Made by a program: the position numbers and the translations under genes. 35,176 nt of DNA, from assembly GCA_013153205.1 (NCBI GenBank), contig JAADEW010000018.1:1-35176 (forward strand). The letters run 5' to 3'. This document shows, in pieces, positions 1 to 18,204 of the stretch (position 1 is its first letter; every line of letters begins with the position of its first letter). The DNA comes from Deferribacteres bacterium. GTDB lineage: Bacteria > Thermosulfidibacterota > Thermosulfidibacteria > Thermosulfidibacterales > Thermosulfidibacteraceae. The notes below the pieces were generated by a model. It saw nothing but the letters and a program-made list of their open reading frames with translations. It searched no databases and was not told the origin of the DNA.

Positions 1-160
1 TCCGGCGCTGGCCCGCAACTGTAACCGGGGACGAAAGCCCGCTTGGTCCCGTCTTTTCGGGATGACAGGCCACTGGAGCTGGAGGGCTTTGGAAGGTTCG
101 AAGGCTCTGGGAAGGCGCGGGCGAGTAGGATGATCCGGAAGCCAGGAGACCGGCCCGAAA
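1..160 (+). promoter_or_regulatory. Cobalamin (B12) riboswitch aptamer; 5' part lies outside the window
   Basis: Conserved cobalamin-riboswitch blocks appear in the right order: CCCGCAACTGTAA (12-24), GCCACTGG (69-76), GGGAAGGCG (109-117) and the B12 box AGCCAGGAGACCGGCC (140-155). The element sits directly upstream of corrinoid transport genes. Confidence 0.85.
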
Positions 161-229
161 GTGTATTCTCCCTTTAAAAGGGGAGAGGCCCTCGAGGAGT
201 GGGGTTGATGTATATGAGGGGATTGCTGT

Positions 230-262
230 GCCCCGGCTCCTTAAGGGCGCCGGGGCTTTTTT
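230..262 (+). terminator. Intrinsic terminator acting as riboswitch expression platform
   Basis: Perfect 8-bp GC stem GCCCCGGC (230-237) / GCCGGGGC (249-256) followed by TTTTTT (257-262). The 5' arm CCGGCTCC (233-240) is also complementary to B12-box GGAGaCCGG (145-153), giving a possible antiterminator. Confidence 0.8.
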
Positions 263-351
263 ATTGCTGTGTTCTGAAGAGGTTGAGGTAGGACTGGGAT
301 AAATGTGTTGGTGTAAGATTAAGTTAAGACTAATTGATAGGAGGTGATGCT

Positions 352-1755
352 ATGAGAAAGTGGTTGGTGGTGCTTGTTCTGGTCTTTTTTCCTTTTGCCG
401 CCTTTTCCGCTGATATCTCTCAGCAGGAGCTGAGACAGCTTGCCGAAACCATTAAGGAGCTGAAGGAGAGGGTGGCGTCTCTTGAGGAAAAGCTCAAAAA
501 GTATGAGGAAAGCGGGGCAAAAGGGGCTGGTGCCGGAGATGTTGCGGAGATGGAGAAGACCCTTTCCTCCCTCAAGGAGGCTCTGGGCAGTATAAAGATT
601 TCTGCCGACATAACCATGGTGGGGCAGGGAACCATCAACAATGGGGACAACATCAGGGGTGAGGGAGATGTGCAGGACGGTGCGTGGAGCTTTGATTTTG
701 AGGTTGAATCAAAGCTCTGGAAAGGAGCAACGGCTTACATGCTTATGGAAGGAGGGCAGGGAGAGGGCGTTGAGGACGAGGTGCCTACCCTTTCCGGTTT
801 TAACGACGACGCTCCCGGAACGGAGAGTGCGCATGTGGAGGTGACCAAAGCATGGTGGGAGCAGGAGTGGGAAGGAAAATGGGGCAGTTTTGTATTTACT
901 CTGGGTAAGGTGGATATAAGCGACTATTTTGACGCAAATGATGTAGCCAACGATGAGACCACTCAGTTTCTTTCAAGCGGTTTTGTCCACAACCTCGCTG
1001 TGGAGTGGCCCGATGATAACGGTCCGGGGGCAAGGCTCACCTTTCAGCCCGGCGATACTCTCTATGTGAGTCTGGGATGGGCAGAGGCTGATGGTGATTG
1101 GGAGGACATCTTTGACGACGGATTCGGAATAGTTGAGGTGGGGCTTCACACCAAGCTTTTCGGACTTGACGGGAACTACAGGGTTTATGCGTGGGTAAAC
1201 TGCAAGGACCACCTTGACGTCTCCCACCTGAAAGATGTGGCAGAGGGGAAAAGAGCCGTGTCAGAGGTTGACGACGATAAGACCAACTGGGGAGTGGGCT
1301 TTTCCTTTGACCAGATGGTTGCGGAAAACATGAAGCTCTTTTTGAGGGGCGGTATAATGGATTCTGATGTGGTCTCTGGCAGTGTTGAGGGTGATGGGAT
1401 TTCCGTTGATACCCTTCCCATCAACGGGGCTTTAAGCTTTGGCTTTTCCGTATCCGGTGCCTGCTGGGGAAGGGCTGGCGACGAGCTGGGTGTTGCTTTC
1501 GGGGTGGTCTTCGTTGACGACGAGGCTCAGAAGTTCTACCGGAATACCGAGCTCACCGATTACTATGACTACTTCAGGAAGCCTGACAGGGTTGATATAG
1601 CCAACGAATATCACCTTGAAGCCTACTACAGGATAAGCTTCTTTGACGGAAGGCTTGAGTTTACCCCTGACTTTCAGGTGGTCTGGAATCCCAACGGCAT
1701 TGATAATGCCGATACCGTTTATGTGCTGGGAACGAGGATGCAGGTTAACTTTTAA
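352..1755 (+). CDS. Outer-membrane porin, OprB/carbohydrate-porin-like beta-barrel with N-terminal coiled coil
   Basis: GGAGGTG (340-346) precedes the ATG at 352; the track's TTG at 334 is less likely. Signal peptide MRKWLVVLVLVFFPFAAFS|AD, then a heptad-like EELRQLAETIKELKERVASLEEKLKKYEE. The remainder is rich in alternating G/D/W/Y/F, includes an OprB-like DETTQFLSSGF block, and ends in ...RMQVNF with a C-terminal Phe typical of OMPs. Confidence 0.7.
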   Translation: MRKWLVVLVLVFFPFAAFSADISQQELRQLAETIKELKERVASLEEKLKKYEESGAKGAGAGDVAEMEKTLSSLKEALGSIKISADITMVGQGTINNGDNIRGEGDVQDGAWSFDFEVESKLWKGATAYMLMEGGQGEGVEDEVPTLSGFNDDAPGTESAHVEVTKAWWEQEWEGKWGSFVFTLGKVDISDYFDANDVANDETTQFLSSGFVHNLAVEWPDDNGPGARLTFQPGDTLYVSLGWAEADGDWEDIFDDGFGIVEVGLHTKLFGLDGNYRVYAWVNCKDHLDVSHLKDVAEGKRAVSEVDDDKTNWGVGFSFDQMVAENMKLFLRGGIMDSDVVSGSVEGDGISVDTLPINGALSFGFSVSGACWGRAGDELGVAFGVVFVDDEAQKFYRNTELTDYYDYFRKPDRVDIANEYHLEAYYRISFFDGRLEFTPDFQVVWNPNGIDNADTVYVLGTRMQVNF

Positions 1756-1769
1756 AAAGGAGGTGCGCT

Positions 1770-2759
1770 ATGAGAGGGTTTAGGACTTTGGTGATTGCAG
1801 GACTGATTTTTATCTGTTTATTTAGCTTTATCCAGCCTTCGGAGGCTAAGATGGAGAGAGGGAAGGAGAAGTCGGCTATCGTTCTTGCCTTTTTCGGCAC
1901 CACTTATCCTTCCGGGTTGAAAGCGGTGGTGAATATACTCCAGACGGTCAAAAAGGCGTTTCCCAATACCGAGGTGAGGGTGACTTTCACATCAAACATC
2001 ATCAGAAGCATATGGAGAAAGAGGCAGAAAGAAGCGAAACTGTGGCTTTCCCGCGGAGTGCCCAAAGAGATTCTCTACGTTAAAGGGATACTCGCTACTA
2101 TGGACGAACTTCAGGAGAGGGGCTACAAAAACATAGTGGTTCAGTCCACGCACATATACCACATGGAACAGGTGGAGGACCTCCTCTCTTACATAAGGGC
2201 GTTGAGGTCTATTGAGACGGTCAAGGAGAGGTGGAGACCGTTTCACAAAATTGCTTTTGGCAGGCCCATCTTTGGGGGTGTGGGGGATAAATACGATTAT
2301 CACGAGGACCTGAAGAAAGCAGTTCTTACTTTGAAGGACGACGTTGAGCTTGCAAGGAGAAAGGGAGCTGTTCTCGTCTATATGGGACACGGTAATGAGT
2401 TCTGGTCCACCGGCATTTACATTGAAGCTCAAAAGATGTTCAGAAAGCTCTTTCCCGATGTGCAGGTCTTTGTTGGAACGGTGGAGGGCTTTCCCTCTCT
2501 GGATGACGTGCTCTATCTGCTGAAGACCCATGCAAAGAGCAAAAAGATTATCCTGAAGCCGCTTATGGTTGTGGCTGGAGACCATGCGCACAATGATATG
2601 GCTGGAGATGAGCCTGATTCATGGAAGAATGTTTTTGAGAAGAACGGATTTGAGGTGACCCCCATCTTTGAAGGGCTTGGGGAGAAACCGGGTATAGCAA
2701 ACATAGTGGTTGAACACATTAAAGACGCCGCAAGAGATGCCGGTATAGTTCTGAAATGA
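1770..2759 (+). CDS. cbiK: CbiK-family sirohydrochlorin cobaltochelatase homologue carrying a signal peptide (exported form)
   Basis: RBS AAGGAGG. CbiK-like blocks AIVLAFFGTTYP, YMGHGNEFW, GTVEGFPS and MVVAGDHAHNDMAGDE are present, so the His/Glu/His catalytic positions are retained. N-terminus MRGFRTLVIAGLIFICLFSFIQPSEA|K looks like a Sec signal peptide. Confidence 0.85.
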   Translation: MRGFRTLVIAGLIFICLFSFIQPSEAKMERGKEKSAIVLAFFGTTYPSGLKAVVNILQTVKKAFPNTEVRVTFTSNIIRSIWRKRQKEAKLWLSRGVPKEILYVKGILATMDELQERGYKNIVVQSTHIYHMEQVEDLLSYIRALRSIETVKERWRPFHKIAFGRPIFGGVGDKYDYHEDLKKAVLTLKDDVELARRKGAVLVYMGHGNEFWSTGIYIEAQKMFRKLFPDVQVFVGTVEGFPSLDDVLYLLKTHAKSKKIILKPLMVVAGDHAHNDMAGDEPDSWKNVFEKNGFEVTPIFEGLGEKPGIANIVVEHIKDAARDAGIVLK

Positions 2760-3604
2760 CGGAGATAGAGGTCAGGTCTTTAAGAAAGAGGTTCGGAAAT
2801 ATAGAAGCTCTGAAAGGCGTGGATTTTGAGGTTAAAAGTGGTGAGATTTTTGCCTTTCTGGGTCCCAACGGGGCGGGTAAAACCACCACCATAAACATAC
2901 TGACGGGACTCATACTGAAGTATGAAGGGGAAATCTTTTATCGGGGGGAGCCTTTCTCCCCCCACAACCTCAAGTTCAAAAAGCTGATAGGGGTTGTCCC
3001 CCAGCACAACAACGTTGACAGGGACCTGTCTGTTGAGGCAAACCTCAAGGTTCACGGATACCTTCACGGCATCTTTGGGAGGAGGCTGAAGGAGGCTATA
3101 GACCGGGTTCTGGAGTTCACCGGACTTACCAACCACAAAAAGAGAAAGGCAGACCATCTTTCAGGTGGTATGAAGAGGAGGCTGGTTATAGCGAGGGCTT
3201 TGATGCACAATCCGGGTATCCTCTTTCTGGATGAGCCTACAGTTGGACTTGACCCTGCCGTGAGAAGGAGCATGTGGGACCTGATAAGAAGCGTTAACTC
3301 GCTTAAGGGATGCACCGTGTTTCTCACCACCCACTACATAGAGGAGGCTGAAATCCTTGCGGATACGGTGGTTATAATAGACAGCGGCAGGGTGGTGGCC
3401 TGCGGAAAACCCGATGAGCTGAAGAGAAGGGTCGGCAGGTATGCCCTTGAGATTTACTACCAGGACAGGATTGAGGAGGAGTTTTTTGAAACCAGAGAGG
3501 AAGCCCTTGAAAGGCTGAAAAGCCTTGATGTGCCTGCTAAAATAAGGGAAGTTAACCTTGAGGATGTGTTCCTGAAGATAACGGGAAGGAGAATAGAGGT
3601 TTGA
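2756..3604 (+). CDS. ABC transporter ATP-binding protein (ABC-2/DrrA-like subfamily)
   Basis: Walker A GPNGAGKTT, signature LSGGMKRRL, Walker B ILFLDEPTVGLD, H-loop TTHY. ATGA overlap with the cbiK stop. Confidence 0.85.
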   Translation: MTEIEVRSLRKRFGNIEALKGVDFEVKSGEIFAFLGPNGAGKTTTINILTGLILKYEGEIFYRGEPFSPHNLKFKKLIGVVPQHNNVDRDLSVEANLKVHGYLHGIFGRRLKEAIDRVLEFTGLTNHKKRKADHLSGGMKRRLVIARALMHNPGILFLDEPTVGLDPAVRRSMWDLIRSVNSLKGCTVFLTTHYIEEAEILADTVVIIDSGRVVACGKPDELKRRVGRYALEIYYQDRIEEEFFETREEALERLKSLDVPAKIREVNLEDVFLKITGRRIEV

Positions 3605-4344
3605 AAGGGGTATGGGCGGTTTTTTACAGGGAGGTTATGTTTCTGAAGCCGAGGTTTTTAAAGGTGATGCTTTCCTCCATCATATATCCCGCTCTGTTTC
3701 TGCTTGCCTTCGGCTACGGTCTCGGGAAGAACGCCAGGGTGGGAAATCTGGATTATGTGGTCTTTCTTATTCCCGGGTTGATAACCATGAGCAGTATGAA
3801 TCAGGCTTACGGCATCTCCCTTGAGGTTCACATATCCCGCTACTACTTCAAGATATTTGAGGAGTATCTTCTTGCTCCCATTAACCGCTGGGAGATAGTG
3901 GTGGGCGAGCTTCTCTACGGAATATTCAAAGGGCTTATCCCGGCTTTCTTCATCACCCTTTATGCCCTTATTTCCGGGATTGGCATAAGGTTGAATCTGG
4001 TTTTTGCCATATGCCTGCTTCTGCATCTTATCTGCTTCTCTCTCATCGGCTATGTGATTGCCATGCTGGTCAAGTCCCATGCGGACCAGGCGGCTTTCAG
4101 CTCTTTTGTGATGGTTCCCATGATATTTCTTTCGGATACCTTTTACCCTATTGAGAAGATGCCTGCGCTGGCGAAGTACATCGGTTACCTCTTTCCCCTC
4201 ACCTATTCCACCAAACTGATAAGAGGGGCTCTTTTAGGGATAGATTCTATGGTTACTTTCAGGAATTTTGCCCTTCTGTTCACCATAACTTTTGCGCTTT
4301 TTGTAATTGCTATATGGGTGACTCAAAGGGCGGAGGTGGTGTAA
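3601..4344 (+). CDS. ABC-2 type transporter permease
   Basis: About 6 predicted TM helices and about 247 aa. N-terminal FYREVMFLKPRF is typical of ABC-2 permeases. The TTG start overlaps the stop of the upstream ATPase; start codon is uncertain. Confidence 0.75.
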   Translation: MKGVWAVFYREVMFLKPRFLKVMLSSIIYPALFLLAFGYGLGKNARVGNLDYVVFLIPGLITMSSMNQAYGISLEVHISRYYFKIFEEYLLAPINRWEIVVGELLYGIFKGLIPAFFITLYALISGIGIRLNLVFAICLLLHLICFSLIGYVIAMLVKSHADQAAFSSFVMVPMIFLSDTFYPIEKMPALAKYIGYLFPLTYSTKLIRGALLGIDSMVTFRNFALLFTITFALFVIAIWVTQRAEVV

Positions 4345-5303
4345 TTAAAAAGCGATACCTTTTTGCTCTTATCCTGCCCCTTGTAGTGGGGGGAGTCTCG
4401 CTTTTTGTGGGTTCCGTTAAGGTGAGCCCGTTTCACCTAACAGGTGAGGGGCTTTACATTCTGAAAACCTTCAGGTTTCCCAGAGTGGTATTTGCTCTCA
4501 TAAACGGTGCCCTTTTGGGGGTGAGCGGCTGTGTTTATCAGCTTATCCTGCGCAATCCCCTTGCCGATGGCTTCACCACGGGAGCCGCCGGTTCATCTGC
4601 GGTGGGAGCCGTTGTTGCCATATCACTGGGACTTCCCATAGGGTATGTGCCTGTTCTGGCGCTGGTATCAGGTCTTCTGGGTCTCTTTTTGGTTTACAGG
4701 ATTTCCTCAAGAGGGGGGCTGATAAACCCTGTTACCATGATACTTGCAGGGGTTGTGGTCAACATCATATCTTCGTCTGTAATAGGATTCCTCAAATACG
4801 CCTTTGAGGAGTCTGTTACCGCCGTTGTCTTCTGGCTTATGGGGGGCTTTTACGCGGTAAGCTATTCCAAGATAGCTTTTGCTTTTCTGGTCTTTGTAGC
4901 CGGCTTTCTCTTTCTGATTTCCAGGGGAAGCACCCTTGATGTCCTCTCCTTTGACGACCTCTCTGCTAAAAGCATGGGGGTTGATGTGGACAGAATGAGG
5001 CTTGTTCTTTTTGTGGTTTCAACCCTTTTTGTGGCGGTGAGTGTCTCCTTCTGTGGAATAATAGGCTTTGTGGGGCTGATAGTGCCTCACATTGTGAGAG
5101 CCATTTTCGGTGCGGGTATGAGGGATAATCTGCTCTTTTCCGCCTCTTTTGGAGCCTCTCTTCTATGTCTGTCCGATGCCCTTTCAAGGAGCGTCATCCC
5201 GTCAGGAGGAGAACTGCCCGTGGGTATCGTTACTTCCATTTTTGGAGGGGGATTCTTCCTCTATCTTCTCATCAGGCGGCAGAGGGAGCTCTGGCATGTA
5301 TGA
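4314..5303 (+). CDS. btuC: FecCD-family ABC permease (BtuC-like corrinoid/siderophore importer)
   Basis: Highly hydrophobic 329 aa. FecCD-like blocks RFPRVVFALINGALLGVSG, NPLADGFTTGAAG, GIIGFVGLIVPHIVR and PVGIVTSIFGGGFFLYLL. Confidence 0.8.
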   Translation: MGDSKGGGGVIKKRYLFALILPLVVGGVSLFVGSVKVSPFHLTGEGLYILKTFRFPRVVFALINGALLGVSGCVYQLILRNPLADGFTTGAAGSSAVGAVVAISLGLPIGYVPVLALVSGLLGLFLVYRISSRGGLINPVTMILAGVVVNIISSSVIGFLKYAFEESVTAVVFWLMGGFYAVSYSKIAFAFLVFVAGFLFLISRGSTLDVLSFDDLSAKSMGVDVDRMRLVLFVVSTLFVAVSVSFCGIIGFVGLIVPHIVRAIFGAGMRDNLLFSASFGASLLCLSDALSRSVIPSGGELPVGIVTSIFGGGFFLYLLIRRQRELWHV

Positions 5304-6006
5304 CTTGAGGGTGTCCGGTCTTTGCGTGGAAAGAGGTGGGTTTCGGCTTGGGCTTTCTCGCCTTTTCATAGGATACGGCGAGAAGGTGGCGGTCATGGGG
5401 GAAAACGGCTCAGGGAAGAGCACCCTGCTGCTTTCTCTGTGTGGAATGTTGTCTTTTAGGGGGGAGGTTTTATACGGTGATAAGCCTGTTTCCGCACTCT
5501 CTTTCAGGGAGAGGGCGAGGATTTTTTCCTACCTGCCGCAGAATCCGGAGATACTTTTTCCCTACACTGTTGAAGAGATAGTTTCTCTGGGATTTGACCG
5601 TTCGGATAAAGACTTTTTAAAGGAGGTTTTCAGCCTTTTTGAGCTTGAGGCAATGAAAAAAGCCAGGATAACGGAGCTTTCGGGAGGGGAGAAGAAGCGC
5701 GTTTTTATAGCAAGGGCTGTGGCTCAATCCGCTCCCATTCTCTTTCTGGATGAGCCCACATCCTCTCTTGATGTGCGGCACAGGGTGCGGTTTCTGGAGT
5801 ATTTGAAGGAATTGAAGAAGACTGTCTGTTGCGTGATGCACGATGTTAACGAAGCTTTGAGGTATTTTGACCGCTTTTTATTTTTAAAAAAGGGTGAGCT
5901 GGTGTATGATTTAAAAAAGGAGGAGGTCAATGAGGAAGTTCTTTCTGACGTTTTTGATGTTGCTGTCTCTTCTTGCCAGTGTTTCGTCTTTTCCTGCTCA
6001 CGCTAA
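5296..6006 (+). CDS. btuD: BtuD/FepC-like ABC importer ATPase
   Basis: An in-frame ATG at 5296 overlaps the btuC stop (ATGTATGA). Walker A GENGSGKST, signature LSGGEKKRV, Walker B ILFLDEPTSSLD. The track's 5149 start would overlap btuC by 155 nt and is unlikely. Confidence 0.8.
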   Translation: MYDLRVSGLCVERGGFRLGLSRLFIGYGEKVAVMGENGSGKSTLLLSLCGMLSFRGEVLYGDKPVSALSFRERARIFSYLPQNPEILFPYTVEEIVSLGFDRSDKDFLKEVFSLFELEAMKKARITELSGGEKKRVFIARAVAQSAPILFLDEPTSSLDVRHRVRFLEYLKELKKTVCCVMHDVNEALRYFDRFLFLKKGELVYDLKKEEVNEEVLSDVFDVAVSSCQCFVFSCSR

Positions 6007-6736
6007 GGTTTACAAAAGGGTTGTGGTGCTTGCTCCTGCCGCCGTTGATATTTTTGAGAAGCTTGACGCCGCAGACCTGATAGTGGGAGTTACTAAAAAT
6101 GTTAAGGGGCTTCCCCATGCAAAGAGGGTCGGGTCCCACATAAGGCCCAACCTTGAGCTGATAGCCGCGTTATCTCCGGATTTGATTGTTATATCTTCAA
6201 ACAGGTTTTTTGCTCCGGCTTTTGCGAAAAAGCTGAACGCGGATATCTTTTACTACAACCCGGTTACCCTTGAGGGTATTATCGCCAAGATAGAGGAGCT
6301 TGCGGGATTGATAGGAAGAGAGGATAAGGCTTACTCTCTGGTGAGAGAGCTTAAAAATAAGCTTTCTTCTGTCAAGCCTCTCAAAAAATCTCCCCGGGTT
6401 GTGTATGAGGTTATGGAGCATCCCCTCATCTTTGCCGGTAAGAAGAACATTGTGGCGGACATAATACAGAAGGCGGGGGGAACCTTCCTTCCAGATATTC
6501 CCAAGAAGTTTGTTAGATTTTCTTACGAGAGGATTCTGGTGTTGAAGCCAGACATATACATCTATCAGGTGGGTCCCATGAACAAGAATCCCACCCCTCC
6601 CCTCAAAAGGCCTTATCTCAAGGGGCTAAAAGCTGTCTTTTTAAGGGTCAACGAGCTTGACTTTTCCCGACCCAACACCAGAAGCTTTGATAACGTGCTC
6701 TTTCTCAACAGGGTATTTTATGAGCTGGAGGAGTAG
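5930..6736 (+). CDS. btuF: Periplasmic substrate-binding protein, class III (BtuF-like)
   Basis: RBS AGGAGGAGG. Signal peptide MRKFFLTFLMLLSLLASVSSFPAHA|K. Typical Peripla_BP_2 start RVVVLAPAAVDIFEKLDAADLIVGVT...PNLELIAALSPDLIVIS. Confidence 0.75.
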   Translation: MRKFFLTFLMLLSLLASVSSFPAHAKVYKRVVVLAPAAVDIFEKLDAADLIVGVTKNVKGLPHAKRVGSHIRPNLELIAALSPDLIVISSNRFFAPAFAKKLNADIFYYNPVTLEGIIAKIEELAGLIGREDKAYSLVRELKNKLSSVKPLKKSPRVVYEVMEHPLIFAGKKNIVADIIQKAGGTFLPDIPKKFVRFSYERILVLKPDIYIYQVGPMNKNPTPPLKRPYLKGLKAVFLRVNELDFSRPNTRSFDNVLFLNRVFYELEE

Positions 6737-6738
6737 AG

Positions 6739-7221
6739 ATGGAGAAGGCACCGCACTTTTGTCTTGAAGGCATAACGCCGGACGGAAAGGTTAAGACCAT
6801 ATGTCTGGACGAACTTCTTTCGCAAAAGCCTTTTCTGGTTCTTTACTTTTATCCTAGGGACAACACCCCCGGATGCACCAAGGAGGCTTGTGAGTTCAGG
6901 GATAACCTTTCACGCATTACCCCCTATGCCACCGTTGCCGGAATAAGTCCGGACAGCATCAAAAGCCACGAGAATTTCAGAAAGAAGCATGAGCTCAACT
7001 TTTACCTGTTGAGCGACCCTGAAAAGGAGGTGTGCAGGTTATACGGGGCATACGGGGAGAAGAAGATGTATGGCAAGGTGCGGGAGGGAGTTATAAGGTC
7101 AACCTTTATTATCTCATCCGATGGGATTATTTTAAAGAGTTGGAGAAACGTCAGGGTCAAAGGGCACGTTGACAAGGTGATTGAAGAGCTCAAAAGACTT
7201 TCGGAGGGTGAGGGTGAGTGA
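6739..7221 (+). CDS. bcp: Peroxiredoxin Bcp/PrxQ (thiol peroxidase)
   Basis: Motif YFYPRDNTPGCTKEACEFRD (peroxidatic and resolving Cys), about 160 aa. Starts 2 nt after the btuF stop. Confidence 0.85.
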   Translation: MEKAPHFCLEGITPDGKVKTICLDELLSQKPFLVLYFYPRDNTPGCTKEACEFRDNLSRITPYATVAGISPDSIKSHENFRKKHELNFYLLSDPEKEVCRLYGAYGEKKMYGKVREGVIRSTFIISSDGIILKSWRNVRVKGHVDKVIEELKRLSEGEGE

Positions 7222-7531
7222 ATTCGTGGCAGTTATGACCACCACGGATGATGAGAAGGTGGCTGAAAAAATTTGCAGAACATTGGTTGAGGAGAGGCTT
7301 GCCGCATGTGCGCAGGTTATTAAAGGCATAAAGAGCTTTTACTGGTGGGAAGGGAAGGTGGAGGAGAGTGAGGAGTTTCTGATATTTTTGAAAACAAAGG
7401 CACAGCTTCTTCCGAGGCTTGAAGAGAGGCTGAAGAGGCTTCACAATTATTCCGTTCCGGAGATAGTGGCTCTGCCTTTTGTTTCCGGTAGCAGAGAGTA
7501 TTTTGACTGGATGCTTGAGAATCTGATTTAG
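7214..7531 (+). CDS. cutA: Divalent-cation tolerance protein CutA
   Basis: CutA1 blocks [31 protein letters not shown] and [19 protein letters not shown]. Start is uncertain: GTG at 7214 follows GGAGGGTGAGG, while the track's ATG at 7181 overlaps bcp by 41 nt. Confidence 0.8.
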
Positions 7532-7604: not shown

Positions 7605-9338
7605 ATGTTCAGGCGGCTTTCCATAGGGACCAAGATAATACTTATCGTTATTCTGGGATTTTTGCTGAGCTATTTGATTAACGTTTACGTTACCAAAAGG
7701 GAATTTGTTCGCTTTGCCATAGAGAAGCTCGTTGAGCGTGCAAGGGGTGTGGCTATCGTTGCTGAAAACACCATGAAGTATGTTGATGAACTTCACAGGG
7801 AAGGGGTCTTTAACGACAGGGTTCTTGAGGAGGAGTTTAAAAAGAGCGTTGAAGCAGGTGTTCCCATTACCCAGACCAAGCTCTACAAAGCGATACCTGT
7901 GGTTGCCGGGTGGCAGGTGGCGATGAGAAGGGCTAAGGAGGCAGGCTATCAGTTCCGCGTGATAAAGCAGAACCCGAGGAATCCTGCCCATCAGCCCACC
8001 GCCTTTGAGAACGAGATGCTCAATGCGGCTAAAAAAGCCGGAAAAAATGAGATATGGCGGCTTTCCCCGGACGGCAAAAAGCTTTATTACATGCGCCTTT
8101 TGAGGCTATCCAAAAGCTGTCTCAAGTGCCACGGGAGCATAGAAGACGATGTGAACCACGATGGAGTGGATATCACCGGTGCCAGGATGGAAGGGTGGAA
8201 GGAAGGGGAGTTCCACGGTGCCTATGTCTTTATAGCTGATATGGGCAGGGTCTATCAGGAGGTCAACAGCGTCATGCTGAAGCAGATAGCCTATGGCGCC
8301 GTGGTGGTTGCTCTGGTGATACTTCTCATCTGGTTTGCCCTGAGGAAGTTGCTTTCCGAACCTGTGGCAAAGCTTGTGGAAGCCCTTGAGCTTCTTGCCG
8401 AAAGGAACCTCGGAATTGAGCTGAATCTGGATAGGGAGGACGAAATAGGAGCCATTGCTGAAAGCGTTAACAGGACCGCATCGGGTATGAGGGAAGCGGT
8501 TCTTGAGGTTAAGGAAGCCAAGGACGAGATAGAGACCAGCGTGGACAACCTTTCCGGAATTGCGGAGGAGGTGAAGAGAGGGGCTGAGGAGCAGTTTGAG
8601 CGGGTGGACCAGGTGGCAGCGGCGTCCGAGGAGTTCAGCGTAACCAGCCAGACCGTAGCCAATTCCGCCGCTTCAGTGAGGGAGAAGGCGGTTGAACAGT
8701 CGGAGAAGGTGAAGATAGGCGAGGAAGCGGTGAAGGGCATGATGGAGAAGATGAGGGAGATAGCGGAGGCGGTGGAGCATTCAGCTCAAACCATTGAAAA
8801 GCTTGGCAAATCCAGCGAGAGAATAGGCGAGATAACCAACGTCATAACGGAGATAGCCGAGCAGACCAATCTCTTGGCGCTTAACGCGGCTATTGAGGCG
8901 GCAAGAGCCGGCGAGCACGGAAGGGGCTTTGCCGTGGTGGCTGACGAGGTGAGGAAGCTTGCGGATAGAACGCAGAAGGCTACTAAAGAGATAGCAGAGA
9001 TGGTCAACAGTATAAGAAACGATTCTATGGAAGCGGTGGATAAGGTGAAGGAGGGAGTGAACAAGGTTGAAGAGGGGCTGGAGATTTCCGACAGGGTCAG
9101 CGAGGTTTTAAGCTCCATAGTGGAAGCGGTTGAGAGCATTACGGAGATGTCCCTTGAGATAACCAATGCCACCAAAGAGCAGGAGATTGCTTCCAGAGAC
9201 ATAGCCGATAACATTCAGGTTCTGGCGGATGTGGCTTCAAAGAATAAAGAGAACGCCAGAGAGATGGTAGAGGTCCTTGAATTCGTGAAGAGGGCTATAC
9301 AAAACCTGAAAAGGGTGGTTGAAAGCTTTAAGTTCTGA
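7605..9338 (+). CDS. Methyl-accepting chemotaxis protein with periplasmic Tll0287-like (DUF3365) c-type heme sensor domain
   Basis: TM1 [19 protein letters not shown]. Periplasmic region with [18 protein letters not shown]...[17 protein letters not shown], with the CXXCH at nt 8118-8132. TM2 [18 protein letters not shown], a HAMP-like segment, then the MCP hairpin tip [35 protein letters not shown]. Confidence 0.85.
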
Positions 9339-9424: not shown

Positions 9425-10186
9425 ATGGTTGTTTTGCTTTCTAACGATGATGGAGTGAACGCTTTTGGTCTGCATGCGTTGAGGAAGGAGCTGTCAAAGA
9501 TTGCCGATGTCTGGGTGGTGGCACCCGACAGGCAGAGAAGTGCGGCAAGCCACTCTTTGACCCTTCACAGGCCCCTCAAGGTCACCGAAATTGAGGAGAA
9601 GGTGTTTGCCGTGGACGGAACCCCGACAGATGCGGTTATTCTCGGCATCAACAAGCTTATGCCGGTTAAACCGGATATAGTGGTATCGGGGATAAACGAA
9701 GGTCCCAATCTGGGCGATGACATAACCTATTCTGGAACGGTCTCTGCCGCCATGGAAGGGACGATTCTGGGGGTGCCTGCCGTTGCCACCTCCCTTGCCG
9801 TGGCGGATTTTAAGAATTACAGAGCCGCCGCAAAGGCAGCGGTCAGAATAGTTGAGTGGGTTTGCGAAAACGGCTTGCCTGAGGGTGTTTTGCTCAATGT
9901 GAACTTTCCTGATGTCAGGGAATACAGCGACTTTAAAGGGGTCAGGTGGACCCGTCAGGGGAGGAGGATATACACCGATTACATTTACGAGTTGAAAGAC
10001 CCCCGCGGCAACGTTTATTACTGGATAGGCGGTTTTCCCGTTGAAGACCATGAGGATAACGACGACGGCGAGGAGACGGATATTGGAGCGGTGAAAAAGG
10101 GCTTTATATCCATAACCCCGGTTAAACTGGATTTGACCGACTACAGTATGCTGGAGCGGGTAAAAAACATAAAGCTGGAGCTGTGA
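9425..10186 (+). CDS. surE: 5'/3'-nucleotidase SurE
   Basis: VLLSNDDGVNAFGLHAL and SGINEGPNLGDDITYSGTVSAAMEG signature blocks. Confidence 0.9.
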   Translation: MVVLLSNDDGVNAFGLHALRKELSKIADVWVVAPDRQRSAASHSLTLHRPLKVTEIEEKVFAVDGTPTDAVILGINKLMPVKPDIVVSGINEGPNLGDDITYSGTVSAAMEGTILGVPAVATSLAVADFKNYRAAAKAAVRIVEWVCENGLPEGVLLNVNFPDVREYSDFKGVRWTRQGRRIYTDYIYELKDPRGNVYYWIGGFPVEDHEDNDDGEETDIGAVKKGFISITPVKLDLTDYSMLERVKNIKLEL

Positions 10187-10189
10187 AGC

Positions 10190-10831
10190 ATGTTTGAGGA
10201 GAGAAGAAAGGCTCTGGTTGAGCTTCTCAGAAAAAAAGGCATCAGGGACGAGAGGGTGCTTAACGCCATCCTCAGAGTTCCCCGCCATCTCTTTGTGCCG
10301 CCTGAGCTTGTGGACAGGGCATACGACGACCGCCCCCTGCCCATAGGTAAGGGACAGACCATCTCTCAGCCTTACATAGTGGCTCTTATGACTGAAGCCC
10401 TGGGAATAGACGAGGATTCCAGGGTGCTTGAGATAGGCACAGGCTCCGGATATCAGGCGGCTGTTCTGGCGGAGATAGCGAAGGATGTCTATACCGTAGA
10501 GAGAATCCCGGAGCTTTCCGAAAGGGCGAGGAAGATAATTGAGGGGTTGGGATATAAAAATGTTTTCTTCAAGGTGGGAGACGGCACCTGCGGCTGGCCC
10601 GAACATGCCCCCTATGATGCCATTATAGTAACTGCCGCATCTCCCAGAATTCCTAAGCCTCTGATAAAACAGCTTAAAGTGGGGGGGAGACTTGTAATAC
10701 CTGTGGGTAATGAATTGACACAGGAGCTTCTTAGGATTACAAAGATTACCGAAGACGGAAAGGTAGATATTGAGTCTTTGGGTGGCTGTGTTTTTGTGAA
10801 GCTGAAGGGAAAGTATGGATGGGAAGAATAG
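10190..10831 (+). CDS. pcm: Protein-L-isoaspartate O-methyltransferase
   Basis: GQTISQPYIVALMTE and the SAM motif VLEIGTGSGYQAAVLA, followed by GGRLVIPVG. Directly follows surE. Confidence 0.9.
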   Translation: MFEERRKALVELLRKKGIRDERVLNAILRVPRHLFVPPELVDRAYDDRPLPIGKGQTISQPYIVALMTEALGIDEDSRVLEIGTGSGYQAAVLAEIAKDVYTVERIPELSERARKIIEGLGYKNVFFKVGDGTCGWPEHAPYDAIIVTAASPRIPKPLIKQLKVGGRLVIPVGNELTQELLRITKITEDGKVDIESLGGCVFVKLKGKYGWEE

Positions 10832-10832
10832 A

Positions 10833-10906
10833 CGGGGCGTAGCGCAGCCTGGTAGCGCACCAGCTTCGGGAGCTGGGGGTCGCCGGTTCGAAGCCGGCCG
10901 CCCCGA
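10833..10906 (+). tRNA. tRNA-Pro (anticodon CGG), no encoded CCA
   Basis: Hand-folded cloverleaf. Acceptor CGGGGCG/CGCCCCG; D stem GCGC/GCGC with loop AGCCTGGTA; anticodon stem CCAGC/GCTGG with loop TTCGGGA (CGG at 10867-10869); variable GGGTC; T arm GCCGG-TTCGAAG-CCGGC; discriminator A. Confidence 0.9.
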
Positions 10907-10910
10907 TTTT

Positions 10911-11354
10911 ATTATCGGTGTTATAGGTGCCTCCATCGCCACCTCCCGTGATTTGGAGAATGCCTTTGCAATCGGTAAACTCATAGCACAGCTTGGGTGT
11001 GCCCTTATATGCGGCGGGCTTGGCGGGGTGATGGAGGCTGCCGCCAGAGGGGCTAAGGAGGCAGGTGGGCTGACCATCGGGGTAATCCCCGGCTACAGCA
11101 AATCCGACGCCAATCCGTATATTGACGTGCCTATTGCAACGGGACTGGGCCATGCGAGGAATGTGATAATAGCGGCTACCTCCGATGCGCTTGTGGCTGT
11201 GGGGGGTGAGTATGGAACCCTTTCTGAGATAGCCTTTTCCCTTAAGATGGGAAAGCCTGTTATATCCCTTTTCAGCTGGGATATACCCGGGGTGATAAAA
11301 GCAGGGGACCCGGAGGAGGCTTTTGCCCTTCTTAAGGAGGTCCTTTCTTGCTGA
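10911..11354 (+). CDS. LOG/SLOG-superfamily Rossmann protein (TIGR00725-like)
   Basis: IGVIGAS...[33 protein letters not shown]...[42 protein letters not shown] matches the TIGR00725/LOG-like fold pattern. The start is unresolved, because there is no in-frame ATG/GTG/TTG between the tRNA end and the conserved first strand. ATT 10911 and ATC 10914 are the only candidates. Confidence 0.6.
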
Positions 11355-16175: not shown

Positions 16176-17110
16176 AGGTTGTTGGCGTTGATGTTGGTGG
16201 GACCCAGATAAAGGCGGCGGTTTTTGACCTGAATGGCAATATGCTAAAGTCCACCAGAGCACCCACTGAAAGCAGACTCGGAAAGGAGAGGGTGCTTTCC
16301 AATATAGTCTCGGTTATTGAGGGATTGTTTTCAGAGGATGTGGCCGCCTTGGGGGTTGCAGTGGCAAGCCCTCTGGACCCGGTGGAGGGGATTCTGTATT
16401 ATCCGCCCAATCTTCCCGGTTTCGGCGTTTTCAACATCAAAAGCTTTCTGGAAGAAAGATTCGGCGTTTCTGTGGTGGTTGACAACGATGCCAACCTTTA
16501 CGCCTACGGAGAGTGGGTCAGGGGGGCAGGTAGAGGGGCGCAGGTTCTGCTTTGCGTTACTGTGGGAACGGGAATAGGGGGAGGGCTCATACACGGCGGT
16601 AATATATGGCACGGCGCCCACGGTATGGGGGCGGAGTTTGGACACATAACCGTTGACCCTGATGGTCCCGTATGTAACTGCGGCAACAGAGGGTGTCTTG
16701 AAGCGATGGCTTCCTCTTACTTTCTCGTGGGATATGTTGAGAGGAGGTTGAGGGAAGGGGTTGCTTCAAGGCTTGCTCCTTTAAGAGGTGTTCTTGAGCC
16801 GAAACTGATTTACGAAGCGGCTCTTGAAGGGGATACTCTTGCCCACGAGGCTTTTGCCGTTGTTGGGAAAAATCTCGGCGTGGGTCTTTCCTCTTTGATA
16901 AATGCCCTTGACCCTGATGTTGTAGTAGTCGGGGGTGGACTATCAAAGGCGGGTATGATACTATTGGAACCGGTTAAAAAAGAGATTTATGCCAGAACCC
17001 TGAAAGGTATCAGGGATAGGATAAGGGTGGAGACTGCTGTTTTAGGTGAATTTAGTGCTGTCTATGGTGCGGCATACCTTGCTATCAAAATAATCGGAGG
17101 TGATAGATGA
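16172..17110 (+). CDS. ROK-family sugar kinase (glucokinase-like)
   Basis: VVGVDVGGTQIKAAVFD ATPase start, VDNDANLYAYGE, GTGIGGGLI, and the ROK zinc motif CNCGNRGCLEAMAS. Confidence 0.85.
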   Translation: MKVVGVDVGGTQIKAAVFDLNGNMLKSTRAPTESRLGKERVLSNIVSVIEGLFSEDVAALGVAVASPLDPVEGILYYPPNLPGFGVFNIKSFLEERFGVSVVVDNDANLYAYGEWVRGAGRGAQVLLCVTVGTGIGGGLIHGGNIWHGAHGMGAEFGHITVDPDGPVCNCGNRGCLEAMASSYFLVGYVERRLREGVASRLAPLRGVLEPKLIYEAALEGDTLAHEAFAVVGKNLGVGLSSLINALDPDVVVVGGGLSKAGMILLEPVKKEIYARTLKGIRDRIRVETAVLGEFSAVYGAAYLAIKIIGGDR

Positions 17111-18204
17111 AGGTAACCATAAGTGTGATTAAAGCCGATATAGGCGGGTATGTGGGCCACAGCAACATGCATCCCAAGCTCATTGAAATGGCTCAGGAGA
17201 GCCTTGATGCGGCCAGAGCTGACGGGATGATAATAGACTACTATGTGGCTTACTGTGGAGACGACCTTTCCCTGATAATGACCCACACCAGAGGGGAGGA
17301 CAACGCCGATATCCACAAGCTTGCCTGGGACATATTCCTGAGGTGCACCGAGGTTGCCAAGAAGCTCAAGCTCTACGGTGCCGGGCAGGACCTTCTTTCC
17401 GATGCCTTCAGCGGCAATGTCAAAGGCATGGGTCCCGGCTGTGCGGAGATGGAGATTGAGGAGAGAAAGAGCGAGCCCATCATAATATTTATGGCTGACA
17501 AGACCTCTCCGGGGGCGTGGAATCTTCCTCTTTACAGGATGTTTGCCGACCCGTTTAACACGGCGGGGCTTGTAATAGACCCTTCAATGCATGACGGCTT
17601 CAAGTTTGAGGTGCTTGATGTTATTGAGAACAAGGTGATAGTTCTCTCCTGTCCCGAGGAGATGTATGACCTTCTGGTCTTCGTGGGGGCATCTGCAAGA
17701 TACATGATAAAAAGCGTTTACAGGAAGACGGACGACGAGGTGGCGGCAAGAGCCTCCGTTCAGAGGCTTAACCTCATTGCGGGAAGGTATGTGGGTAAAG
17801 ACGACCCTGTGCTTATTGTCAGGGCACAGTCAGGTTTTCCTGCCGTTGGTGAGGTTCTTGAGCCTTTTGCCTTCCCCCATCTGGTAGAAGGGTGGATGAG
17901 GGGCTCCCATCACGGTCCCTTCATGCCTGTCTCTTTTGAGCAGGCTACACCCACGAGGTTTGACGGACCTCCGAGGGTTATCGCGGCAGGATTCCAGCTT
18001 GCGGACGGCAGGCTCATAGGTCCAGTTGACATGTTCAAGGATGTTAGCTTTGATTACGCCAGGCAGAAAGCCCTTGAGGTTACCGAATACATCAGACGCC
18101 ACGGTCCCTTTGAGCCTCACAGGTTGAGCCTTGAGGAGATGGAATACACCACTTTGCCGGCGGTGCTGGAGAAGCTTAAAGACAGATTCAAGGTGGCGGA
18201 GTAG
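17107..18204 (+). CDS. fbp: Fructose-1,6-bisphosphate aldolase/phosphatase (class V, archaeal-type FBPase)
   Basis: MKVTISVIKADIGGYVGHSNMHP, MTHTRGEDN, YGAGQDLLSDAFSGNVKGMGPG and GWMRGSHHGPFMPV are hallmark blocks of the bifunctional FBPA/P family. ATGA overlap with the ROK kinase. Confidence 0.9.
   Translation: MKVTISVIKADIGGYVGHSNMHPKLIEMAQESLDAARADGMIIDYYVAYCGDDLSLIMTHTRGEDNADIHKLAWDIFLRCTEVAKKLKLYGAGQDLLSDAFSGNVKGMGPGCAEMEIEERKSEPIIIFMADKTSPGAWNLPLYRMFADPFNTAGLVIDPSMHDGFKFEVLDVIENKVIVLSCPEEMYDLLVFVGASARYMIKSVYRKTDDEVAARASVQRLNLIAGRYVGKDDPVLIVRAQSGFPAVGEVLEPFAFPHLVEGWMRGSHHGPFMPVSFEQATPTRFDGPPRVIAAGFQLADGRLIGPVDMFKDVSFDYARQKALEVTEYIRRHGPFEPHRLSLEEMEYTTLPAVLEKLKDRFKVAE

Follow-up and report, generated by a model that had tools for sequence, protein, structure and literature searches.

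The contig JAADEW010000018.1 of a Deferribacteres bacterium (assembly GCA_013153205.1), analyzed here over its positions 1 to 35,176 and called the window below, begins inside a cobalamin riboswitch, and the first gene behind this riboswitch encodes a porin. In many bacteria the first gene behind a cobalamin riboswitch is btuB, and a first-pass annotation of the same DNA had described the porin as standing where BtuB would be expected, proposing that it forms a corrinoid- or cobalt-selective channel. What, then, passes through an outer-membrane porin that is controlled by vitamin B12? We confirm that the open reading frame (ORF) at 352-1755 encodes a real OprB-family outer-membrane porin under cobalamin-riboswitch control. 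From its sequence, modeled structure and gene contexts, we consider it probable (roughly 60%) that this protein is a B12-repressed entry porin for Co2+ that serves B12 synthesis, and not a replacement for BtuB.

The porin gene and its leader carry these features:

1-172, plus strand: cobalamin riboswitch aptamer, the 3' two-thirds, with the 5' end beyond the window edge (Rfam RF00174, 62.7 bits, model positions 62-189).
230-262, plus strand: expression platform, an intrinsic terminator with its stem at 230-256 followed by U6 (by folding, -23.1 kcal/mol, z -3.3).
338-345, plus strand: Shine-Dalgarno site AGGAGGTG, 6 nt ahead of the ATG at 352 (by sequence inspection).
352-1755, plus strand: precursor of an OprB-family porin, 467 amino acids (Pfam PF04966, E 6e-38; AlphaFold2 model; best fold match in the PDB 4GEY).
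352-411, plus strand: signal peptide, residues 1-20, sequence MRKWLVVLVLVFFPFAAFSA followed by D, with cleavage between AFSA and D; modeled as a helix at residues 2-16 and then a low-confidence linker.
421-588, plus strand: periplasmic stalk forming a coiled coil, whose helices, 24-53 and 61-79, meet at a Gly/Ala hinge (DSSP assignment of the AlphaFold2 model).
592-1752, plus strand: 16-strand beta-barrel, residues 81-467, strongly acidic, with a C-terminal Phe (the model's strand list gives 16 strands and 8 external loops).
913-1020, plus strand: loop L3, residues 188-223, a putative constriction loop with a D..D..NDETTQF motif (the longest loop; predicted local distance difference test (pLDDT) score >90).

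The translated ORF matches the Pfam OprB profile at 131.6 bits against a cut-off of 22.9, with residues 113-467 aligned to profile positions 13-372 of 372. This is its sole Pfam match, and neither the Plug nor the TonB_dep_Rec family was detected by Pfam in the product of 352-1755. The AlphaFold2 model, built with 81 homologs as input, has a pLDDT of 90 and a predicted template modeling score (pTM) of 0.80. A Foldseek comparison with the PDB returned the 16-strand OprB of P. putida as the best match (4GEY; E 4e-24, template modeling score 0.74), followed by OmpM1 and DcaP, which are trimeric and carry a coiled-coil stalk, and then by OmpF-type porins. These results bear out the first-pass description of an OprB-like beta-barrel of about 450 residues: the profile search that it had suggested and the structure prediction agree on the family and the fold, the signal peptide, the DETTQFL block (within L3) and the C-terminal Phe (the protein ends in QVNF) are all present, and the N-terminus is a coiled coil rather than a TonB box or plug. 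The coiled coil itself is somewhat longer than the 40 or so residues first reported, totaling about 55, and the stalk is kept throughout the subfamily. The NCBIfam model NF033921 (por_somb, "iron uptake porin") aligned with the last 53 residues only, at 21.3 bits against a cut-off of 100, and an SLH domain was not matched. Overall, the protein is best read as a trimeric-type, cation-selective, 16-strand porin.

Two known kinds of porin frame this assignment. OprB of Pseudomonas shares the Pfam family, the plug-less 16-strand diffusion barrel and the C-terminal Phe, but it lacks a coiled-coil stalk and is a carbohydrate channel whose gene belongs to sugar-uptake operons, whereas the window porin stands behind a B12 riboswitch in a metal and cobalt context; the two sequences are recognizably similar in the last 106 residues only (E 2e-4). 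DcaP of A. baumannii and OmpM of Veillonella show the same succession of signal peptide, periplasmic coiled coil and 16-strand barrel as the window porin. Their likeness to it is at the level of fold. OmpM has a peptidoglycan-tethering SLH domain, and DcaP takes dicarboxylates.

Loop L3 contains the most conserved columns of the family (D188..D194..N200-D-E-T-T-Q-F), and the block NDETTQFLSSGF lies in it at residues 200-211. It holds nine acidic and no basic residues, and L2 and L6 likewise contain no basic residue; over the whole barrel, 71 Asp and Glu residues stand against 26 Lys and Arg, with an isoelectric point of 4.1. The extreme acidity of the barrel, together with the absence of basic residues from L2, L3 and L6, fits selection for cations.

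The fold also speaks to the possibility that the porin replaces BtuB in a manner independent of TonB, passing cobalamin or cobinamide to the BtuFCD-like importer encoded in its operon. Solutes larger than about 600 Da do not pass porins with 16 strands and an in-folded L3, and B12 measures 1355 Da, so the conserved in-folded L3 of this OprB-type barrel weighs against the passage of corrinoids, as does an eyelet that is strongly acidic when cobalamin is uncharged. BtuB, for its part, is likewise encoded directly behind cobalamin riboswitches and often adjoins btuFCD, but it has a plug, a TonB box and 22 strands and is energized, whereas the window porin has neither plug nor TonB box and is a passive 16-strand channel that by homology is too narrow for corrinoids. 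The operon position is what such a substitute would occupy, and the importer in the same operon is BtuC/BtuD/BtuF-like, with a binding protein nearest to BtuF and IsdE. Also in favor of a substitute, genes for TonB, ExbBD or a TonB-dependent transporter occur neither in the 35-kb window nor in 21 kb of a 57-kb twin contig (L001).

The riboswitch is truncated by the window edge, but it is complete in this twin contig, which is 99% identical and carries the aptamer at 9606-9818 (93.9 bits), ending 183 nt upstream of the porin start. The hairpin at 230-256 and the U6 run behind it form an intrinsic terminator, which makes the element a transcriptional OFF switch. A generic terminator scan had overlooked this hairpin on account of its loop length, and direct folding detected it. 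Equivalent GC-rich hairpins with U-runs are found in the leaders of two relatives (L002 and L007); the leader of a locus from Planctomycetota (L063) differs, in that its hairpin sequesters the Shine-Dalgarno site. In the window, the strong Shine-Dalgarno site at 338-345 led us to prefer the ATG at 352 over an upstream TTG given in the mechanical ORF list. The sequence of the porin locus is present in hydrothermal-vent DNA metagenomes, and when we sought RNA-seq evidence for the locus we found it in DNA metagenomes only and in no transcriptome.

To place the riboswitch-porin pair in a wider context, 185,579 species-representative genomes were scanned, yielding 486 relatives, and the best 80 loci were kept at species level; the database holds 95 homologs of the porin. 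Riboswitches were called from Rfam scans and with an nhmmer profile, an earlier regular-expression search for the B12 box having overlooked four of them (L026, L045, L048 and L063). In 12 of the 80 loci the porin, or the operon that contains it, has a cobalamin riboswitch in its leader, and one more such locus is inferred from synteny. Neither the nhmmer profile, run across all loci, nor an Rfam control batch of 15 loci revealed any further riboswitch-linked locus. The full order riboswitch-porin-cbiK (secreted)-ABC2-ABC2-btuC-btuD-btuF recurs in L002, L003, L007, L008, L010 and L011, and the same order is found in L085/L086, with the riboswitch called by Rfam; the contig of L004 stops after the porin, and that of L012 begins after the riboswitch position. 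At least eight relatives, counted as species-level genomes, share the operon, with porin identities of 56-69%; all of these loci but L085/L086 come from "Aquificales/Aquificota" and from unclassified vent metagenome-assembled genomes (MAGs).

Beyond this group the gene order changes while the link to the riboswitch persists. A deltaproteobacterial MAG (L034, 38% identity) has riboswitch-cbiK (secreted)-btuF-porin; two Thermodesulfobacteriota loci (L045 and L048, 32-34% identity) have riboswitch-cbiK (secreted)-cbiL-porin and no corrinoid importer at the locus; and in L026 (34% identity) and in L063 (32%) the riboswitch lies immediately 5' of a stand-alone porin gene. The riboswitch-porin links at 32-38% identity are independent linkages. 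The placement of the porin as first gene under a B12 riboswitch, read from the truncated aptamer at 1-172, thus agrees with the complete aptamer of the twin contig and with a linkage that is conserved among relatives; far from being peculiar to the window, the tie between this porin family and B12 recurs in distant lineages. For the corrinoid channel these loci cut both ways: the monocistronic riboswitch-porin units (L026 and L063) are in its favor, and the pairing of the porin with cbiK and cbiL in the absence of a corrinoid importer (L045 and L048) is evidence against it.

Some riboswitches lie close to iron-uptake genes. The riboswitch-controlled porin units of L026 and L048 are directly 3' of feoB operons, so that iron-linked and B12-linked arrangements are adjacent there and may interconvert through gain or loss of the riboswitch. 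A further riboswitch, in L041 (2220-2842, 69 bits), was considered as a regulator of dtxR-feoAB-porin and excluded from the count because it belongs to a metE fragment. What follows it, shortly before dtxR-feoAB-porin, is only the N-terminal 117 residues of a B12-independent methionine synthase (Meth_synt_1), perhaps the remains of a decayed metE.

Genes for transition-metal uptake or its regulation, with the 13 B12-riboswitch loci included, adjoin the porin in about 56 of the 80 loci. Twenty-three loci are linked to DtxR, FeoA and FeoB (21 with FeoB directly upstream by tblastn, together with L022 and L032 by Pfam), and 22 are linked to NikR, CbiM (NikM) or DUF4198 by tblastn. Among the pooled immediate neighbors of the remaining loci, Pfam families were dominated by NikR (14) and CbiM/NikM (15), with DUF4198 (4) and PDGLE (3) in addition. 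No sugar-uptake system lies beside the window porin or figures among the recurring neighbor families of the 80 loci. The closest homologs without a riboswitch (58% identity; P0007/L082 and P0011/L083) are encoded immediately 3' of dtxR-feoA-feoB, and one MAG carries both a riboswitch-linked copy (L007) and a FeoB-linked copy (L017). Multiple paralogs within one genome are also seen in L028/L068/L071 and L023/L030.

The arrangement nikR-porin-cbiM/nikM, sometimes with DUF4198, is found in Omnitrophota, Planctomycetota and other MAGs (L018, L020, L029, L038, L044, L046, L047, L052, L057, L058, L061, L064, L066, L067, L069, L071-L073, L075, L076, L078 and L080), and has the look of a nickel/cobalt regulon porin. 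We found no description in the literature of a coiled-coil OprB porin flanked by nikR and cbiM. Some homologs of the porin have been given the name MnoP by JGI; MnoP is the Mn2+ porin of Bradyrhizobium. For the homolog from Thermosulfidibacter takaii (P0003), a genomic context was sought and is not on record.

Porins from these different contexts are closely alike. The window porin is 58-60% identical to two FeoB-linked homologs (L006 and L013), and a riboswitch-linked one (L008) shares 65% identity with L013. Riboswitch-linked and Feo-linked porins align from end to end with no loop indels and an identical L3 motif, and a search for residues that discriminate between the two groups gave three weak columns only, which track phylogeny, and no specificity signature. 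That FeoB- and NikR-linked paralogs share the loops and the motif disfavors a corrinoid channel, because a channel for a neutral corrinoid of 1.3 kDa should differ structurally from one attached to FeoB.

The same uniformity favors a different idea, that the gene is one copy of a general small-solute porin with no metal preference, placed wherever outer-membrane flux is needed. If so, the tetrapyrrole substrate or product of the chelatase encoded next to it, or other small solutes, might equally diffuse through it. Consistent with this are the lack of residues separating B12-, Fe- and Ni-linked porins, the presence of several paralogs per genome, and the roughly 24 of 80 loci without a recognized metal context, many of which are on short contigs. 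Set against it, about 56 loci stand beside Fe2+, Ni2+/Co2+ or B12/cobalt systems, no recurring neighbor family points to uptake of sugars or general nutrients, and the acidic L2, L3 and L6 argue for a preference for cations. We therefore regard a non-specific copy as unlikely.

OprB-type porins have been tied to metals before. Geobacter sulfurreducens has one with a Fur box 5' of feoAB, a link to Fe2+ (PMC545781), and cyanobacterial OprB-domain porins, the Slr1908-type iron porins, have metal phenotypes (PMC9705863). Read from gene neighborhoods, the contexts of the present subfamily extend the G. sulfurreducens observation and fit the cyanobacterial phenotypes. In these metal-regulon porins, as in the window subfamily, an OprB barrel is genetically tied to uptake of divalent transition metals; the former are controlled by a metal-sensing protein and the window porin by an RNA that senses B12, the cofactor made at the end of the pathway, and the SLH domain carried by the cyanobacterial iron porins is absent from it. 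The window porin is thus best filed as a B12-riboswitch-regulated variant of the metal-regulon OprB porins.

Downstream of the porin, the following genes complete the operon:

1770-2759, plus strand: secreted class II chelatase CbiK, of the CbiK-P type (Pfam CbiK, E 2e-72; signal peptide ending in QPSEA, before K).
2756-3604, plus strand: ATPase of an ABC-2 type (ATP-binding cassette) transporter (Pfam ABC_tran; NCBIfam DrrA/NodI-like matches all below their cut-offs).
3601-4344, plus strand: permease of an ABC-2 type transporter (Pfam ABC2_membrane, E 1.7e-21).
4314-5303, plus strand: permease of a FecCD/BtuC-like type II ABC importer (Pfam FecCD, E 1.6e-74; among NCBIfam models BtuC scores best, below cut-offs).
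5296-6006, plus strand: importer ATPase, BtuD/HmuV-like (Pfam ABC_tran; NCBIfam models of heme and of corrinoid ABC ATPases; start placed as in the gene called in L001).
5930-6736, plus strand: secreted periplasmic binding protein, BtuF/IsdE-like (Pfam Peripla_BP_2).
6739-7531, plus strand: Bcp (AhpC/TSA) and CutA1 (Pfam), after a gap of 2 nt from the binding-protein gene.

The genes from the porin to CutA1 are tightly packed on one strand, and Bcp and CutA1 are probably co-transcribed with the operon. Their position is not conserved, and SUMT occupies the same place in sister genomes. CutA1, encoded 3' of the Bcp peroxiredoxin gene, is a "divalent ion tolerance" protein. No cbi genes were found elsewhere in the window, where the remaining genes are housekeeping genes.

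SUMT (TIGR01469, 291 bits) closes the operon in L002, L007, L011 and L085, and in L045 and L048 CbiL (TIGR01467, 224 bits) is encoded after cbiK and before the porin. SUMT makes the precursor of the CbiK substrate, and CbiL catalyzes the step after cobalt insertion. Either enzyme, encoded in one operon with the cobaltochelatase CbiK, points to de novo synthesis of B12, which needs cobalt, rather than to salvage, and SUMT in the operon thereby counts against a corrinoid channel. With the fold, the Feo- and Nik-linked paralogs and SUMT/CbiL all pointing away from corrinoids, we judge the BtuB-substitute explanation improbable. The first-pass proposal of a corrinoid- or cobalt-selective channel accordingly survives in its cobalt half, and the framing of the gene as sitting in BtuB's place is not supported for a 16-strand barrel with an acidic L3, with paralogs linked to Feo and Nik, in an operon centered on CbiK.

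We favor the entry of Co2+ as the most likely function because the relatives of the porin adjoin iron and nickel/cobalt importers. B12-riboswitch regulons typically include cobalt importers, and a 2021 review lists no cobalt-specific outer-membrane channel as confirmed (PMC7689651). In the scheme we propose, this copy of the porin would be controlled by an OFF riboswitch that responds to adenosylcobalamin and acts through a terminator. When B12 is scarce the operon would be transcribed and the porin would raise the permeability of the outer membrane to Co2+. A co-transcribed envelope module, consisting of the secreted and catalytically intact cobaltochelatase CbiK, the ABC-2 pair and the BtuCDF-like type II importer, would then capture cobalt; that Co2+ is the transported species and that CbiK hands over to the importer are steps we infer. 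When B12 is replete, termination at 256-262 would switch off cobalt entry and cobalt handling together. The narrower claim, that at low B12 the porin lets more Co2+ into the periplasm for use by the downstream module, seems to us somewhat better than an even bet.

Several observations weigh against Co2+ entry as we have framed it. The B12-linked porins carry no residue signature relative to the Fe- or Ni-linked ones, so "cobalt-selective" may overstate the case: any small divalent cation may pass, with specificity residing in regulation only. The binding protein of the importer resembles binders of tetrapyrroles (BtuF and IsdE) and not CbtJ, and these relatives indicate that the inner-membrane substrate is probably a tetrapyrrole, whether a corrinoid or another. 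Finally, the monocistronic riboswitch-porin units L026 and L063 match equally what a BtuB substitute would be expected to show.

The resemblance to heme proteins raises another explanation, in which the secreted CbiK is a heme chaperone, the importer takes heme, the porin serves iron or heme, and control by B12 is incidental. The closest solved relatives of the window CbiK are the heme-binding periplasmic CbiK of D. vulgaris (2XVX) and FetB (9B86), the best solved relative of the binding protein is the heme binder IsdE, ahead of the BtuF proteins, and the riboswitch-linked loci L026 and L048 adjoin feoB. Lobo et al. reportedly found in 2017 that the D. vulgaris CbiK(P) became a heme binder through His96 and His103. 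In the alignment with 2XVX these two ligands are replaced by Glu136 and Arg143 in the window CbiK, so the heme-chaperone explanation does not transfer to it, and sequence alignment shows its catalytic histidines to be kept (GHG, AGDHA). In addition, every lineage uses a cobalamin riboswitch for control, not Fur or DtxR, and heme, at 616 Da, equals or exceeds the largest size that such a porin lets pass. We consider this explanation very improbable.

A tetrapyrrole substrate for the importer would be accommodated if the operon were a periplasmic cobalt-insertion shuttle, acquiring cobalt by metalating a tetrapyrrole outside the cytoplasm. We hold this view only tentatively and give it a modest chance of being right. 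The porin would admit Co2+, and the secreted, intact CbiK would insert it into sirohydrochlorin in the periplasm. The ABC-2 pair might export sirohydrochlorin or precorrin-2, or might power periplasmic metal transfer in the manner of NosDFY, and the BtuF/IsdE-like binding protein and type II importer would return cobalt-sirohydrochlorin to the cell. The co-operonic SUMT (the upstream step) and CbiL (the next step) would flank cobalt insertion in the pathway. Were the shuttle to operate, an early B12 intermediate would act as a "cobaltophore", and the long-puzzling periplasmic CbiK of Desulfovibrio, Deferribacteres, Desulfuromonadales, Nitrospirae and the window lineage would be explained.

The module downstream of the porin extends beyond the porin-linked loci. 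Homologs of the ABC-2 permease lead to a set of riboswitch, secreted CbiK, ABC-2 pair, FecCD-ABC-binding protein and SUMT in three further lineages. In the complete Deferribacteraceae genome V6Fe1 (L088; CP063375, 201123-217863) the module lies within a cbiA...cbiC-cbiJ biosynthesis cluster; there the BtuCDF-like importer genes stand between the secreted cbiK and the cbi methyltransferases, cbiC and cbiJ, and the ABC-2 pair is divergent from the riboswitch region. In Geothermobacter (L089, 6589-7054) two adjacent cobalamin riboswitches (126 and 119 bits) face away from each other on opposite strands, one leading to the secreted cbiK and the other to ABC-2, FecCD, ABC, binding protein and SUMT. 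In all 15 of the 15 module CbiK proteins (12 porin-linked, plus L088, L089 and L090) the protein is secreted and the catalytic His residues are kept (GHG/AHG, AGDH).

The third lineage, from Nitrospirae (L090), bears on the place of the porin in the module. Its first gene 3' of the cobalamin riboswitch (4271-5575, plus strand) encodes a 434-residue secreted protein ending in GVNF, and is followed by genes for a secreted CbiK, a PepSY_TM protein, the ABC-2 pair and the importer. This protein shows no similarity to the window porin and has a near-threshold match to Porin_O_P (19.9 bits against a cut-off of 20.9), making it a candidate outer-membrane barrel outside the OprB family. A non-orthologous outer-membrane channel in the same slot argues that the module needs an outer-membrane entry.

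Parts of this arrangement have precedents. The association of riboswitch, cbiK(P) and btuCDF is already known in Desulfovibrio (PMC545781, PMC11124144): as in the window, the D. vulgaris order riboswitch-cbiK(P)-btuCDF-cobI places a secreted class II chelatase beside a type II importer under a B12 riboswitch, but that locus has no porin or ABC-2 genes, and the heme-binding histidines of its CbiK(P) are absent from the window CbiK. FetB of P. gingivalis is an extracytoplasmic CbiK-like chelatase with Co and Mn activity (PMC13065792). Its fetA-fetB-ABC (iht) locus resembles the window operon in encoding an outer-membrane channel first and then a secreted chelatase and a type II importer; it differs in that the channel is a TonB-dependent receptor and the system handles heme or porphyrin. 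The CbtJKL system of S. meliloti is riboswitch-controlled and BtuCDF-like and serves cobalt, not B12 (PMC7689651). Its permease and ATPase are 31-34% identical to those of the window importer, but unlike the window operon it has no porin, chelatase or ABC-2 partner. The window binding protein was considered as a CbtJ ortholog and rejected, as BLASTP gave fragments of 23-37 residues at E 0.005 or worse and the PDB neighbors differ.

In the searchable literature, with subscription papers outside the search, we found no description of a cobalamin riboswitch with a porin or OprB, or of an OprB porin linked to cobalt or B12; papers on Thermosulfidibacter likewise gave nothing relevant on TonB or cobalamin. 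Genome reconstructions assign the passage of cobalt across the outer membrane to generic porins (PMC7726332), and the present work offers a concrete candidate for this step, a porin under direct B12-riboswitch control that is conserved across several phyla. We think it probable that the window porin lets cobalt through the outer membrane on behalf of a conserved envelope module centered on periplasmic CbiK. The hitherto unexplained secreted cobaltochelatase CbiK(P) is thereby tied to a complete envelope module of outer-membrane channel, chelatase, ABC-2 pair and type II importer. Within the coiled-coil OprB subfamily, paralogs are separately tied to Fe2+ (DtxR/FeoAB) and Ni2+/Co2+ (NikR/CbiM) regulons, many annotations as "carbohydrate porin" should probably read metal porin, and matched sets of paralogs within single genomes are available for comparing metal selectivity.

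Three other features of the window lie outside the operon. Directly 3' of it, 7605-9338 encodes a methyl-accepting chemotaxis protein with a Tll0287-like periplasmic sensor domain. The mechanically listed ORF 10815-11354 (LOG/Lysine_decarbox-like) has a tRNA-Pro(CGG), at 10833-10906, across its 5' end, so the true start of that gene must be 3' of the tRNA. At 17107-18204, in keeping with a vent organism akin to Thermosulfidibacter, lies a gene for a class V fructose-1,6-bisphosphate aldolase/phosphatase (FBPase_3, E 5e-191), an enzyme typical of deep-branching thermophiles.

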